Positions 45,001-51,000 of a DNA stretch of 64,000 nucleotides are shown piece after piece; the stretch's first letter is position 1; each line of letters opens with the position of its first letter. This stretch comes from Abditibacterium sp. (GTDB lineage Bacteria > Armatimonadota > Abditibacteriia > Abditibacteriales > Abditibacteriaceae). The position numbers were made by a program. The stretch lies in NCBI GenBank assembly GCA_965199495.1, contig CBDASK010000003.1:1504001-1568000 (forward strand). Direction: 5' to 3'.

Positions 45001-48000
45001 CGAAACGGACTGACGGTAAAGGCGCGGCGTCGTCATCGCTTCGAAGGCATTGACGGCGCCGACGATGCGCGCGGCAATGGGAATTCTCTCGGCGGCCAGC
45101 CCCGAAGGATAGCCGCTGCCGTCCCATTTTTCGTGCTGATGCAAAATCGCGTCGGCCACGAAATGCAGATGCGGCATCCGCAAAACCAGATCGCAGCCGA
45201 TCACGGGATGGGTGCGCATAATCTTCTGTTCTTCGTCATTCAACCGCCCCGTGTTGAGCAATATTCCGTCGGGCACGCCGACTTTTCCAATGGCATGAAG
45301 CAATGCGGCCTGACGCACCTCTTCCAGTTGTTCGGCTTTGAGATCGAGTTTTTTGGCGACTTCAACGGCCAACAACATGATGCTCTGCGCGCGCCCGCCG
45401 GTATAAGCATTGCGAGTTTCGATGGCGTCAATCAAAGCGGAAACGGTATCGTTATAACGCTCTTCGTGTTGCCGGTAAAACTTCGCGTTTTCCAGCGCGA
45501 TAATCATCTGCGGCTCCAACTGTTGGAGCCGGTGGCTGTCCGCAAGGGTAAAGTCGCCGTCCGATTTGTTGGCCAGCAGCAAAACGCCGCCGTTTTCGTG
45601 ATGGGCCGCAAAGGGCAGCGCGATGAGATTGAAAAACTCGCAACTTTTCGGCGTGTTTTCGAAATCGTTTTCGATAACCGCTTCTTTGCCCTGACGAACT
45701 CTCTGCGTGAACTCGAACAGTTCGTAAGCCACGCGCGGCGGCAACCCGTCTAACCCACGCATTGCGGCGGCATCTATGGCGCTCGAATCGGTGAGAACGC
45801 CAACTTCAGCGCCCGTAATTTCGCAGGCGGCAGTTACAATTTGCCCGACCAAATCTTCAGTTTTGAGATCGAAGAGCGGCCCCATTTGTTGCAACAACTT
45901 GTCGCCTGACGAATCGTCGAGTTCGCTGGCAGCGCCCTCGATTTCGTTGATTTGCTGCTGCAAGCGAGCGTTATCGCCTTCCAATTTTTTGTTGTGGTTT
46001 TCCAAAAATTCGATGAGTTCGCTGGCGTCATTCAATTCCGATTGTAACGTTTCAATTTGTGCCGTCAAGCCTGCTTCGTGCGCGAAGTGCTGCGTTCTGG
46101 CGCTGTCACTTTCCATTTGGAGCGCCGCTACTATTTGGCGCGATTTTTCGAGTTGCTCGATGACATCGCGAAGCGCCGCAACGGCAGTTTCTCCCCCGTT
46201 GTCGGTGGAATCTGCCTGGACTTTTTCCAACGCGGAATCCGAGTTCGGGTCGCCGGATTTTTGGTGCGACTCCGCCGCGACGACCGATGAAGAACGCACG
46301 GGGACGGGAATGATAGAAGGGGCGGATGAGGGAAAAAGAGCGCGGGGTTTCATAGAAAGACAGAGTTGCTGCGGCGCTCAAAGTGGCTTTCGCCATGCCT
46401 ACAAACAACGGATTCTGTCAATACAGCAACAATTTCGCCTCTCCCCAAAGAAACTTATTTCGCTTTTTTAGCGGCGGCTTCCAAGGTGGAATCGGGCACC
46501 GCTTTTTCGCTGGAGCGCGCCAGAAGTTCGGTGATAACTACGAAAATGAGCGAGGCCACTCCTGCCGAAATGTTGAAACGCTTGGTGAGGAAGTTGGCGA
46601 ACATTTTGGCGACGAAACCGCCCAAAATGCGGCGACCGAAAAATAAAAGAAAGGACATGGGAATTCCCATGTCCTTTCAATTTACGCGCCAATGACAATT
46701 TTCAATTAACTGCCGAAGCGTTCGCTGACTTTATCCCAATTGACGGTGTTCCACCACGCTTCGAGATATTTTGGGCGCGCGTTCTGATAATTCAGATAAT
46801 ACGCGTGTTCCCACACGTCGTTGCCCAGAATCGGCGTCAGGCCCTGCGTGAGCGGGCTATCTTGATTGGGCGTCGAAATCACCTGCAAATTGCCCGACGC
46901 GTCTTTGACCAGCCACGCCCAGCCCGAACCGAACTGGCCCGCGCCCGCCGCGTTGAATTTGGTCTTGAGTTCGTCCAGCGAACCAAACGTCTGGTCAATG
47001 GCGTCTTTGAGCGCCCCGCTGGGCTGCGAAGCGCCGCCGGGCGTCATGGTTTCCCAAAACATGGTGTGATTGATATGTCCGCCACCGTTGTTGCGAATAG
47101 CGGTTTTAACCGAATCGGGCGCGCTGTCGAGATTGGTAATCAAATCTTCGATAGATTTATTGGCCAGTTCGGGCGCCTTTTCGAGGGCGGCGTTGAGATT
47201 ATTGACGTAAGCCGCGTGATGCTTGTCGTGATGAATTTTCATGGTTTCTTCATCAATATGCGGTTCGAGCGCGTCATACGCGTAGGGCAGAGCGGGAAGT
47301 TCAAAAGCCATAGTATTTTCCTTGAATCGCGCGGCGCCACGATTTGCTGGTTTTTGGCGCGCCGCCGAAATTCGAGGTTTCTCTGGCGCAAAACTGGCGC
47401 CGCGTTTTTGGGTAGTGCTACGAATCAGAAGTTTTGCTCTTGCCCCTTGCGCTCCATAAGCAAATCTGATTATAATTATTTCCGCGCCAAATTGGCGCAC
47501 CAAAATCATGTTTGTTTTCGGCTTGAACTTAAAACCCTTCGCTTTGCAGAATCTGCAAACGAATGGTTTCGTTCCACTTCCGACAGCGCGCATGAATTTC
47601 TAAGTTCTCAGAAATCATTGATTAAACGCCCGCCTCTGGAAGTCCCGGAGGCGGGCGTTTTTGTTTTTCTGATGCGATTTTGCTTGATCGTCTAAAGGTA
47701 GGACTTCTGACTTTGGCCCAGAAAATCTTGGTTCGATTCCAGGTCGAGCAGTGGAAATTTTTCCAATAGTGAGGTGGCGAAGTGGTAACGCGACGGCCTG
47801 TTAAGCCGTTCATCGCAGGTTCGATCCCTGTCCTCACTGTAAGGTGCGCGTGGCCCAATGGCAGAGGCGGTCGGTTTAAGCCCGACGTGTTGCGAGTTCG
47901 AGTCTCGCCGCGCACAGAGTTAGTTTTTCGCCCGCGTAGCCCAATTGGTAGAGGCGCTGGATTCAAACCCCAGAGGTTCGCAGTTCGAGTCTGCGCGTGG

Positions 48001-51000
48001 GCAAATTTCACTCACGAAATATGGCGTTAAAACAGCTATGATACCCTGCACACCAGCAACGTCATCGCCGTTCCAATCGTCTAAAATTGACAACACATCA
48101 CCGATGCAACAATCACAATCCGAAGTTCTCGTGCCCGCGCTTGAAAGCGCCGACCTCGCGCAAGAACCTCATATTATTACCGATAATTTGGACGAACTTC
48201 TGGCGGTTTTGCCCGCCGAATTGTCCGATGCGATTCCCGAATCGCAGCGCCCCAACTTATTGGAAATCGTCTTAGATTTGGGTCGTCGGCCCGAAGCGCG
48301 TTTTCTGGGACGCTATCAATATCTGCGCGAAACCGTCGTGACGCGCGAAGAGTTGGACTCAATCGAAGCGAAAATCGGTGCTTTCGGCGACGACAACCGC
48401 GCCGGACTGCCAGCCACGTTGCATCGCATCTCGGCGCTTCGCAATCGGCGCGGCCAAATCGTCGGCCTGACGCTACGCGTTGGGCGCGCCGTGACCGGCA
48501 TCATTGACATTCTGCGCGACTTGATCGAAAGCGGCCAATCGCTGTTGTTGATGGGCCGTCCGGGCCTGGGCAAAACCACGATGCTGCGCGAAATGGCGCG
48601 CGTTCTGGCCGACGAATCCGGCAAACGCGTGGTGATTGTGGACACCTCGAACGAAATCGCGGGCGATGGCGATGTGCCGCATCCGGCGATTGGGCGCGCG
48701 CGGCGGATGCAGGTGCCGCACGTCGCGCACCAACACGACGTGATGATCGAGGCCGTCGAAAATCACATGCCCGAAGTCATCGTGATTGACGAAATCGGGC
48801 GCATGGAAGAAACGCTCGCCGCGCGCACCATCGCCGAACGCGGCGTGCAACTCATCGCGACCGTGCACGGCAACACGCTCGATAATTTGATCGCCAATCC
48901 TTCGATGAGCGATTTAATCGGCGGCGTGCAAACCGTGACGCTGGGCGACGAAGAAGCGCGCCGTCGTCGCACGCAAAAAACAGTCAGCGAGCGCAAATTA
49001 CCGCCGACTTTCGACATCGTTGTCGAGATGATCGAGCGCGACAAAATCGCGATTCGCCGCCCGGTGGCTGATGTCGTGGACGCGTTACTTCGCGGCCAGA
49101 GCGCCAGTCCCGAAACGCGTTGGCGCGACGAGAACGGCGAATTAAATGTCGTGGGAGCCGAAGTTATATCGGCGCCCGAACCGATGGGCGAACGCGAGTT
49201 TTCCAATCGTAATGGTCGCGGCGGCGGGCGCGATAATCGCGGGCGCGGCGGCAATAATCGCGATAATCGTAACGGCTCCAACAAAGCGCACGGCTATTCC
49301 AAAGGTCACGGCGCTCCGGTTCCGCCGGTATTTCTGGCGCCCAAAGGCGGCACGCTCGTTCCCGTTGGCCCGCGCGCGGAAAGCGCGCAAACCTTCGCGC
49401 CATCGTCGTTCGATGACGATGGAGATGACCTAAAACCCATATTAAACGGCGAAGACGCGCGCCAATTCGAGTACGAAATGTTGCGTGACGAAAACAACGG
49501 CCCGGCGGGTGAACTGGCCGAAGAAGAGTTCGAGAATTTGCTTTCGACGTGGCAATCGCAGCCGGTGAACATGAGCAAAATTCGGCGTATTTATCCGTTC
49601 GGCATTTCGCGCTCGCGCTTGTCGCGCGCGGCCAAACATTTGGGAATTGACATCGTGCCCGCGCGCACCTGGCAAGAATGCGACGCCGTTTTGATGCTGT
49701 CGGGCGACGAAGGTTTGCCCGCGACCAATTCGATGCTGCGCGAAGCGCGCGACCTGAAACTGCCGATTATCGGCGTCGGCGGCAACACTTACGCGCAAAT
49801 CGTGGCGCGATTGAATGATCTATATAATACCGGCGCGTCCGATAGCGAAGATTCGCCGCGCGAACTGGCGATCCGAGAAGCCAAAGAAGCCGCGCAACGC
49901 GTGCTGGAAAGCGCGCAGACCATCGAACTGCGCCCGCAAATGAAAGCGCTGCGGCGTCTGCAACACGAAATCGCCGAGCGTTATCATCTGAAAAGTTTCA
50001 GCGTAGGACGCGACCCGCGCCGCCGCGTCAAAGTCGCGCCGATGATGGAACGGTAGAAGTGAGCGTGTCCGCGAAGGCGTACAGTTGCGCGCGAAGCGCG
50101 ATTCCAGACCCACATTTCAATGGGTTACGCGGGATGTTCACTCTCGTAAACCCATAATAAATTATGGGTCTGGAATCGCGCTTCGCGCGCAACTGTACGC
50201 CTTCGCGGACACACGAATCGAACAATGAACCAAACTCCACAAACTGTTGAAGAGTTGGGCTGGCAAGACGGCACCGTCGCCGAATTTTTGGGTTTGACGC
50301 CCGAAGAATCGGCGCTCATCGAGATGAAGTTGGCGCTGAGTCGTCACTTGCGCGAGCGCCGCGCCGCCAGCATGACGCAAAACGAATTGGCCGAAAAAAT
50401 CAGTTCGAGCCAATCGCGCATCGCCAAAGCCGAAAGCGGACACAGTTCAGTTTCGATGGAACTGTTGGTGCGCGCGATTCTGGCGACGGGCGCAACGCCC
50501 CACGAAATTGGCGAAGTTTTGGAGCGCGTTTGAGCCACAAAGAAAGTCGCGCCCATGACGCAAAGATGAATTATGAACCTGCCAGACGCGACCAAGCGCA
50601 CAAACGAATGTTGAAACCGCGTCCGGCTTTGTCTCCCCATGTTTGCGTTTGGTAAGCGACAGCTTTGTTTTCCCATTTTGTGGATTCGCGCAGTTCTTCT
50701 AACTCGCCCTCAAAAGGGCGTTGCGCTTTGTCGTAGCTGATGAACATGACAATACGCGCATCAATTTCCCAACTGTATGTTCTTGATCCGAATGGTTTCC
50801 ATAATTGGCCGAGTTGACCGCTCAAATCGGCTTTTTCCCATCGCCCAAGTCTGTTTTCCTGCCTATCAACGTAATGTCCTGAACCATATCGCCTCACTTT
50901 TATATTCGACACCTTCACCAAAGCAAGCGTCACAGTACCAATTGAGGGAGAGTGACAAATGGCAGTTGACGAAAAGTTGTCTATAGGAGAAAATCGGCTG

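Follow-up and report, generated by a model that had tools for sequence, protein, structure and literature searches.

In the T-box riboswitch, whose bulge carries the motif UGGNACC, tRNA status gates a terminator; the RNA binds uncharged tRNA directly and has no leader ORF. The E. coli pheST attenuator senses charged tRNA through a leader peptide and controls a part of the translation apparatus, namely a synthetase for one amino acid and not tRNA genes. The attenuators of amino acid biosynthesis (trp, his, leu, thr) are described as a leader ORF with regulatory codons and the pairings I:II, II:III and III:IV, with termination under fast or absent translation (PMC1183508). In Anabaena, the trn operon and the L-arrays are supernumerary, normally silent tRNA genes with rtcB and HNH neighbors and a role in translation stress; their control acts at initiation through promoter repeats and the repressor TrcR, and the words “attenuat” and “leader” are absent from the main texts on these arrays (PMC8421152, PMC10272220). 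In the RtcR-controlled RNA repair operon, damaged tRNA induces the repair genes via a protein activator (PMC10272220). For vmlR and topAI, ribosome stalling on an upstream ORF (uORF) opens a translation-stress gene, and the abstracts do not mention leader residues that match tRNAs lying downstream.

Here we report a tRNA-Gln/Asn/Leu/Leu array in a 64,000-nt stretch of Abditibacterium DNA, the whole of which is referred to as the window. Like the biosynthesis attenuators, the unit is predicted to terminate under fast or absent translation, but the genes controlled here and in related loci are tRNAs and RNA-repair genes rather than biosynthetic enzymes, one leader would sense as many as 8 amino acids or more, and the leaders show no synonymous preference for the array anticodons. 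With the Anabaena arrays the family shares supernumerary tRNA genes (their silence being a prediction here), rtcB and HNH neighbors and a putative translation-stress role; it differs in the stage of control and in size, the Anabaena array being 26 genes long whereas that of the window has 4, and those of relatives often 1–7, with a leader matched to each. In contrast to a T-box, the locus has a leader ORF and no Rfam T-box match (47250–48150), and sensing is proposed to fall to the leader-bound ribosome, not to a protein activator as for RtcR. In the literature searched (main texts, few subscription journals), no description of leader-attenuated tRNA arrays was found, in line with a preliminary description of this locus.

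Organization of the locus

On the + strand, a predicted promoter, a 31-codon leader, a terminator and four duplicate tRNA genes follow one another in this order. The features are as follows (positions in the window).

47447..47476, + strand: predicted sigma-70-type promoter (-35 TTGCGC, 18 nt, -10 TATAAT), inferred by eye from the sequence
47484..47498, + strand: short 5' hairpin directly after the predicted start site (fold)
47508..47603, + strand: leader ORF, 31 codons, no Shine-Dalgarno (SD) motif (ORF call; 3 close relatives share its start, stop and length)
47506..47595, + strand: predicted long hairpin over the whole ORF (I:II, protector) when the leader is untranslated, -34.6 kcal
47523..47564, + strand: predicted sensor zone (region I), codons 6–19, Leu/Asn/Gln 9/14 (folding model)
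47576..47591, + strand: antiterminator strand (region II), predicted to pair with 47628–47643 (terminator 5' arm and loop)
47624..47669, + strand: intrinsic terminator (III:IV) with U tract; 16-pair hairpin 47624–47660, -32.1 kcal
47680..47752, + strand: tRNA-Gln(UUG), duplicate, 39 positions identical to the other copy
47767..47840, + strand: tRNA-Asn(GUU), duplicate, 43/72 identical to the other copy
47844..47916, + strand: tRNA-Leu(UAA), short variable arm, 73 nt versus 83 nt in the other copy
47930..48003, + strand: tRNA-Leu(CAA), short variable arm, 74 nt versus 84 nt in the other copy
46706..47311, - strand: flank outside the unit, divergent Fe/Mn superoxide dismutase (Pfam PF00081, PF02777)
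48104..50056, + strand: flank, SpoIIIAA-like ATPase with R3H domain (Pfam PF19568, PF01424)

The promoter lies under the threshold of the promoter scan and is absent from its output; a -35/-10 pair occupies a like position in 26/27 related loci. A short ORF lies between promoter and controlled genes in 27/27 loci, which were chosen for having a terminator. The uncalled leader ORF of the preliminary description is present with the stated length of 31 aa and has no NCBIfam match. The terminator that had been placed 23 nt after its stop is also present, the measured spacing being 20 nt to the outer pair and 24 nt to the GCCC core, and the array directly follows, with tRNA-Gln 19 nt downstream. 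A hairpin resembling that at 47484..47498 also heads the Ser/Tyr leader (contig 4309380).

Since all four array anticodons have a further copy elsewhere in the genome, the tRNAs were rightly called “backup” in the sense of duplicates. The short variable arm, also seen on this genome’s only Leu(UAG), was ruled out as a novelty, being common in actinobacterial Leu(UAA); in scans for short-arm Leu tRNAs (GTDB, viral), the matches listed were for the most part phage arrays and solitary actinobacterial genes.

The leader-terminator build occurs in only 2/44 tRNA units of this genome, the Glu-Trp-Ala cluster having neither part, as noted before; leader and terminator also stand upstream of rtcB and cimA. 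The genes downstream are tRNAs; a gene of amino acid biosynthesis follows only at the cimA loci, namely L048, L111 and the one at contig position 2537418. Many operons of related loci carry RNA-repair genes (RtcB, RtcA, Ro60, Hen1-Pnkp, RNA ligase, RlaP, KptA and Thg1 being represented); no repair gene lies alongside the window array. The terminator scan listed no + strand terminator between the array and the ATPase gene, which may be transcribed by read-through; the same gene lies downstream in 5/8 Gln/Asn/Leu loci.

Leader residues and array content

Leu, Asn and Gln make up 11/30 residues of the window leader, compared with 18% for the proteome (p 0.011), an enrichment already pointed out, and the leaders of relatives change with the array as had been described for R/C/D/S and H/W/L/R arrays. 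The window leader contains no His, Trp, Cys, Asp or Tyr. Across the family, leader residues track array content (one-per-group swap, p 2.5e-5 to 7e-5; 168 draws, 8 groups). The cognate share exceeds that of the proteome at p<0.05 in 18/23 family loci and that of other leaders in 15/23; a whole-leader excess is absent in 5/23 (L100, L106, L099, L087 and L111). The family has at least 150 tRNA genes among the matches listed, the locus set being no unbiased census of arrays. The Ser/Tyr unit has the same build, as reported, but a weak residue match (11/55, p 0.18 versus other leaders), with most of its Ser run past the switch point predicted by folding, and is a poor example of the leader-array match.

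The cognate residues are confined in position and frame. When the boundary was set purely by RNA folding, the ten codons before it held 147/220 cognate residues versus 97/352 after it, the share being higher before in 21/22 loci; over the same ten codons the ORF frame gave 147, the +1 frame 54 and the +2 frame 44, each of 220. The match is per amino acid and not per isoacceptor codon. Synonymous codons read by the array’s anticodons were not preferred (128/186 versus 127.5 expected; 119/174 versus 121.4 after adding the degenerate Leu genes), and the earlier claim of matching codons thus held for amino acids but failed for isoacceptors. Rare Leu codons were mildly enriched (21/75 versus 17.8%, p 0.02; loci not independent).

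The lack of an SD motif in 21/26 leaders and a start codon buried in a hairpin would suit a leader RNA that binds tRNA directly, in a T-box-like manner, or a protein, with no need of translation. However, SD-like 4-mers precede only 73/674 approximate gene starts of this genome, and the cognate enrichment is frame-specific. Start, stop and frame are kept, with 40/78 variable columns at third codon positions. In 47250–48150 only tRNAs pass in Rfam, the Thr and Trp leader matches being under the cut-off and reflecting the terminator, and a UGGNACC motif occurs in only 2/27 loci. Direct binding is therefore regarded as extremely improbable.

The hairpin over the window ORF (z -4.7, 0/200 shuffles as stable) has counterparts in 8/8 Gln/Asn/Leu leaders (z -2.1 to -5.0, 60 shuffles each), and arrays decay, as seen from an HNH-like insert in G011 and from Leu genes that have degenerated in G010 and G012. 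Both observations would be expected if the terminator merely closed a gene for a small RNA or small protein, with the arrays as silent passengers and leader composition resulting from hairpin constraint or tRNA-gene copying. This is very unlikely, given that the terminator–first tRNA gap is only 12–35 nt in most loci and so leaves no room for a promoter, that the longest leader-array match is 6–7 nt versus 7.6 by chance, that leaders of other array types match though they are not hairpins, and that the folding model finds no switch in the relic L102, which has lost its tRNAs.

Antiterminator pairing in the folding model

The antiterminator had been called weak, and plain leader-terminator duplex energies were weak again (p<0.05 in 3/27 loci; second figure 5/27). 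A ribosome-position folding model, whose read-out was designed after the loop pairing had been spotted by eye, gave better support: a helix of 10–18 bp between the 3' part of the ORF and the terminator loop was predicted in 22/22 loci and goes off where the cognate run ends. Its antiterminator strand covaries, the helix following changes in the terminator loop; like the parts of the unit, the duplicates and the leader-array match with its frame and position, this can be read from the sequences. Within the model, the antiterminator is thus better supported than previously held. A switch profile was obtained for 24/27 loci, and L002 gave one as well when the transcript was shortened; L391 and L394 switched at one model setting only, and this genome’s own cimA and rtcB leaders and L398a showed no clear switch. 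By a fixed rule, 20/27 loci were antiterminated versus 9.3 and 7.0 expected, with p 0.033 for the window locus against both recoded and codon-shuffled leaders, and the leader-terminator swap gave a median p of 0.004 (range 3e-5 to 0.075).

In the window leader, codon 19 is the last ribosome position that still keeps the antiterminator. The switch fades once the modeled transcript reaches at least 8 nt into the 3' arm, and in the full-length transcript the terminator beats the antiterminator; the switch must therefore be kinetic, and the predicted mutual exclusion of the two helices depends on transcript length.

In the model any stall ahead of the boundary works, as it would in a general translation-stress sensor resembling the antibiotic-induced uORF attenuators, in which any such stall induces and cognate residues are secondary. 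The untranslated leader already favors the antiterminator in 14/27 loci, the protector being predicted to give termination without translation in the window locus and 12/27; a terminator of the same type heads the Ro60 cassettes L101 and L104, which have no tRNA by ARAGORN at normal threshold; and ribosome antibiotics induce the Anabaena array (PMC8421152). However, the untranslated state is predicted to terminate in all 8 Gln/Asn/Leu leaders, and such a sensor leaves unexplained why the residues of a leader vary with its array, and do so in the ORF frame and immediately ahead of the boundary. On its own this account is unlikely, although it could hold together with a cognate attenuator.

Occurrence beyond the family

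Tested out of sample, the leader-array match persisted in further families of Armatimonadota and in the phyla Planctomycetota and Pseudomonadota. A blind best-ORF swap over 16 out-of-family groups gave p 5e-5 to 1.7e-3 (p ~0.02 for 9 Planctomycetota groups, p ~0.009 for 12 non-Armatimonadota groups) after leaving out two arrays that hold all 20 amino acids and inflate the result. An intrinsic terminator was present in 16/27 out-of-family units and lacking in 11/27, G457, G458, G842, G793 and G903 among them, and several units had no leader. Arrays of relatives range from 1 to 25 genes, and long-arm Leu copies are also present in 5/5 out-of-family genomes checked. When at least 135 clusters were scored (metagenome loci included), 14 had a terminator and 5 were of the family type, L122 being found by eye. 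A metagenome pattern scan gave 39 loci, of which 5 were relevant (L070, L071, L073, L087 and L097) and the rest were ordinary terminators or His leaders; a search through the order of G457 gave 1/151 genomes.

Proposed mechanism and significance

The attenuator reading came through the swap, frame, boundary-position, covariation and out-of-family tests, all on sequences and models, and we consider it highly probable that a ribosome-coupled transcription attenuator keeps the spare tRNA genes silent. We infer leader translation, the folding kinetics, and the silence and induction of the array as follows. RNA polymerase would start near 47483, with a ribosome following along the leader. If the tRNAs for Gln, Asn and Leu were all amply charged, the ribosome would move beyond codon 19 and cover region II, so that the terminator folds and transcription stops ahead of the tRNAs. 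If any one of these tRNAs were short, the ribosome would wait within codons 6–19, and region II would pair with the emerging terminator loop and upper 5' arm, leaving the hairpin unable to nucleate; the array tRNAs would then be made and relieve the stall, a negative feedback in which the switch acts as an OR gate across several amino acids. In an untranslated leader the I:II hairpin would form and keep the unit off.

As natural trigger, cleavage or modification that depletes functional tRNA is the most likely, with about an even chance, because extra tRNA cannot cure amino acid hunger and RNA-repair genes are found in related operons. General ribosome stress is a less probable trigger, and amino acid hunger itself is doubtful; either would operate this switch in the same way.

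The proposed control is classical attenuation with a new target, a textbook mechanism moved from amino acid supply to tRNA supply. Evenly balanced, in our judgment, is the joint proposal of an undescribed, widespread feedback in which ribosomes reading an array-spelling leader control tRNA genes, forming a multi-input tRNA-damage sensor in at least 3 phyla with unrelated terminators, and probably Rho where none is intrinsic, as in the five units named above. Why silent spare tRNA arrays are kept, and when they are used, has so far been answered for one cyanobacterium, via a repressor; leader attenuation would be a second, self-contained answer, with the ribosome gauging the tRNA pool and turning on just those species that are missing. 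Residue by residue, the model predicts the shortage to which an array would respond, and it connects the arrays with RNA repair and, through that, with conflict involving tRNA-targeting toxins. If the joint proposal is true, the leaders would amount to a record of the tRNAs that ribotoxins attack in nature, with the divergent short-arm Leu tRNAs serving as resistant replacements.

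Layout of the unit and its place in the genome

The unit lies on the + strand of the window and comprises the following features:
47447-47476, +, predicted promoter-like pair
between promoter-like pair and leader ORF, +, short hairpin (window sequence)
47508-47603, +, leader ORF of 31 codons
47624-47669, +, terminator hairpin of 16 pairs with a T run
47680-48003, +, four tRNA genes (Gln/Asn/Leu/Leu array)

The description of these tRNAs as "backup" was borne out: every anticodon of the array is found again in another tRNA gene of the genome, from which the array copy is divergent (39-52 identical positions). 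Both Leu genes of the array have a short variable arm; since the sole tRNA-Leu(UAG) of the genome (contig C3, 3473050-3473125) also has a short arm, short-arm Leu tRNAs are probably charged in this organism. On the main contig, a terminator was found ≤140 nt upstream of 4 of the 44 tRNA units, and a terminator with a leader ORF in only two, the window array and the Ser/Tyr unit. The Glu-Trp-Ala cluster is without a leader, as the preliminary description said. Terminator and leader of the same type as in the window occur in L183, an Abditibacteriaceae record. Two neighbouring similar genes at 42869-46353 (- strand) are coiled-coil/GAF/HD-GYP-looking from their translations only. ARAGORN also listed on C3:
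4284143-4284216, tRNA with a UUA (stop-reading) anticodon
4061305-4061537, Glu-Trp-Ala cluster
4263025, Trp (four genes in all)
4621966, Ile(UAU) gene

Leader residues follow array content

A family set of 27 loci, 23 with tRNAs, was assembled by querying 41 genomes with the DNA of the whole unit (matches in 18), by two terminator-pattern searches and by a metagenome scan; it is biased to terminator-bearing loci and therefore gives no share of arrays having a terminator. Leaders were chosen blind to tRNA content (ATG, ≤90 codons, stop shortly 5' of the terminator, 3' of the promoter pattern), which left a single candidate frame in 25 of 27 loci; tRNA genes were added by hand at L087 (one Arg) and L103/L106 (four distal). 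Leaders of Gln/Asn/Leu arrays carry runs such as LNLNQQNLQLQLQ (L116), that of the Arg/Cys/Asp/Ser array L113 carries CRCDRRSDRSDR, that of L110, with a lone Asn gene 5' of hen1-pnkp, has 9 Asn in 55 residues, and in the 14-gene array L105 cognate residues, those carried by tRNAs of the own array, make up 47/59. The claimed excess over proteome background held in 18 of the 23 loci with tRNAs (p<0.05), and the cognate share exceeded that of the pooled other leaders in 15. As kin are not independent, one locus was drawn per group and arrays were permuted over 8 groups, set by array and leader type rather than by a tree-based control, giving p 2.5e-5 to 7e-5 across all 168 draws, 2e-4 to 6e-4 minus the Ile group and 0.023 for the 7 long arrays. 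This confirmed that the leader sequence changes with the array in relatives.

The match was further located relative to the boundary, the last modelled ribosome position keeping the antiterminator, which was taken from folding alone (for L103 and L107 it was placed by hand where the first long step occurs; for L105 a late automatic value was kept). Over 22 loci, 147/220 of the 10 codons before the boundary were cognate versus 97/352 after it, the share being higher before in 21; the exception is the Ser/Tyr unit, which shares the build of terminator and leader ORF. An array swap restricted to this 10-codon zone gave p 2e-4 to 8e-4, and reading its bases in the other two frames only 54 and 44 cognate codons. 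In family loci, leader codons showed no bias towards those synonyms that the array anticodons read, and the sensor would therefore report an amino acid's tRNA pool, not a single isoacceptor.

Predicted antiterminator and folding model

Best-duplex energies between leader and terminator were weak against shuffles (3 and 5 of 27 loci), in line with the weak pairing signal reported earlier. Because pairing of the 3' part of the leader ORF with the terminator loop and upper arm was seen by eye in the duplex output, a ribosome-position folding model was built, post hoc in design, in which nascent RNA is hidden by the ribosome as far as 12 nt beyond the A site, the read-out being the five uppermost pairs of the terminator. 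A step from blocked to formed terminator was predicted in 24/27 family loci; in L002 it appears with a transcript 1-2 nt shorter, and it was absent from L111, which never terminates in the model, and from L102, a leader whose tRNAs are lost. At one fixed ribosome position 20/27 loci were blocked, against an expectation of 9.3 from synonymously recoded leaders and of 7.0 from codon-shuffled ones; the window locus, where all three states are explicit in the model, had p 0.033 in both comparisons. Swapping terminators among 9 groups, L102 left out, gave a median p of 0.004 (<0.05 in 95% of 60 draws). With L111 excluded, a predicted antiterminator helix of 10-18 bp is present in 22/22 tRNA loci, and the strand that it takes from the ORF tracks the loop sequence across sub-lineages. 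The modelled effect rests on folding order, as it fades 8-10 nt into the terminator 3' arm.

Units outside the family

A query with the short-arm Leu tRNA, not the terminator, matched 44/401 phylum genomes (loci for 30 of its 49 matches) and 14/301 Planctomycetota, and a GTDB scan also yielded units among the matches listed; their terminators are unrelated to those of the family set. Examples are a NYLLLSQLLLLK leader 5' of three Leu genes (G157, L399), HSSLLSHSRL 5' of Leu and Ser genes (G751, L433), MMRRLPQHLLLRHPARA 5' of a Pro-Leu-His-Gln array (G842, L429) and MFATAHMQKVGTANIIG 5' of an Ala-Thr-Gln-Met-Gly-Lys-Asn array (G458, L401, a Hyphomicrobiaceae record). In 27 units, excluding two 20-amino-acid arrays, one contig-edge array and single Leu genes, every short ORF upstream was scored on own and foreign arrays and the highest score was used; this gave p 5e-5 to 1.7e-3 over 16 groups (Planctomycetota alone ~0.02; non-Armatimonadota ~0.009). 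Sequences had been viewed before this test, but units lacking any visible leader stayed in. Intrinsic terminators occur in 16/27 units, and a clear model step, again located where the cognate residues stop, was obtained for L399, L400, L433, L393, L396a, L397a and L398b. No leader was found upstream in G713, G692, G715, G838 and G899, nor this build in phage tRNA arrays among the matches listed. Long-arm Leu genes are present in 5/5 out-of-family genomes checked. L396, L397, L398 and L401 are operons in two units, each leader matching its own tRNAs.

Array decay and neighbouring genes

In L102 (G023) leader and weakened terminator persist with no tRNA downstream. Leu genes with altered T-loops, missed by ARAGORN, at L116 2395-2470 and in the L117 gap after Asn are probably decaying copies. 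An HNH-like ORF stands in place of the 5' part of the array tRNA-Gln in G011 (L045 1557-2261, - strand), with weak, below-cut-off IscB and ZorE matches. Between attenuator and Ro60, L104 1527-2800 and L087 3178-3311 contain short motifs in repeated copies, along with tRNA-like genes whose anticodon arms carry long inserts, all of which may be Y-RNA-like; YrlA gave no match there at the Rfam cut-off.

RNA-repair cargo and relation to known systems

Many of 35 operon proteins hand-chosen for scanning from 99 ORFs of related operons are RNA-repair factors, namely RtcB (5), RNA ligase (4), Ro60/TROVE (4) and RlaP (3), together with Hen1, Pnkp, RtcA, KptA and Thg1, and a Ro60-like gene (weak vWA match) lies downstream of the Ser/Tyr unit. 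Directly 5' of rtcB, Abditibacterium sp. has a leader of 40 codons with a terminator of -28 kcal (C3 2253979-2254101, L434), for which the folding model gives only a narrow switch. In L390 (G197), the rtcB of a tRNA and repair operon is interrupted by a group II intron reverse transcriptase.

Ile-codon leaders with terminators also stand 5' of citramalate synthase (C3 2537418-2537486, L436; L048; L111). In G013 a tRNA-Ile(UAU) lies between such a terminator and citramalate synthase, whereas G041 has a like leader without the tRNA, a possible route for a biosynthetic attenuator capturing a tRNA gene. Six metagenome loci (L074, L075, L089, L095, L096, L098) with His-run leaders and terminators 5' of probable his genes are ordinary attenuators.

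The proposed mode of working is alike to that of the classical attenuator as set out in the available text of PMC1183508, whose sequence features are found here save the target. Cargo and context are common to the Anabaena trn operon, which, in the available portions of PMC8421152 and PMC10272220, is controlled at initiation by TrcR. A literature search covering few subscription journals and no supplements found no precedent for leader-peptide control of tRNA genes, in agreement with the preliminary description. At the level of sequence, the leader/terminator/tRNA-array build is real and reproducible across lineages, and an attenuation mechanism for a spare tRNA array is very probable; what is new relative to classical attenuators is the target, tRNA genes. 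The signal would be loss of working tRNA, and amino-acid hunger or antibiotics would trip the switch likewise.
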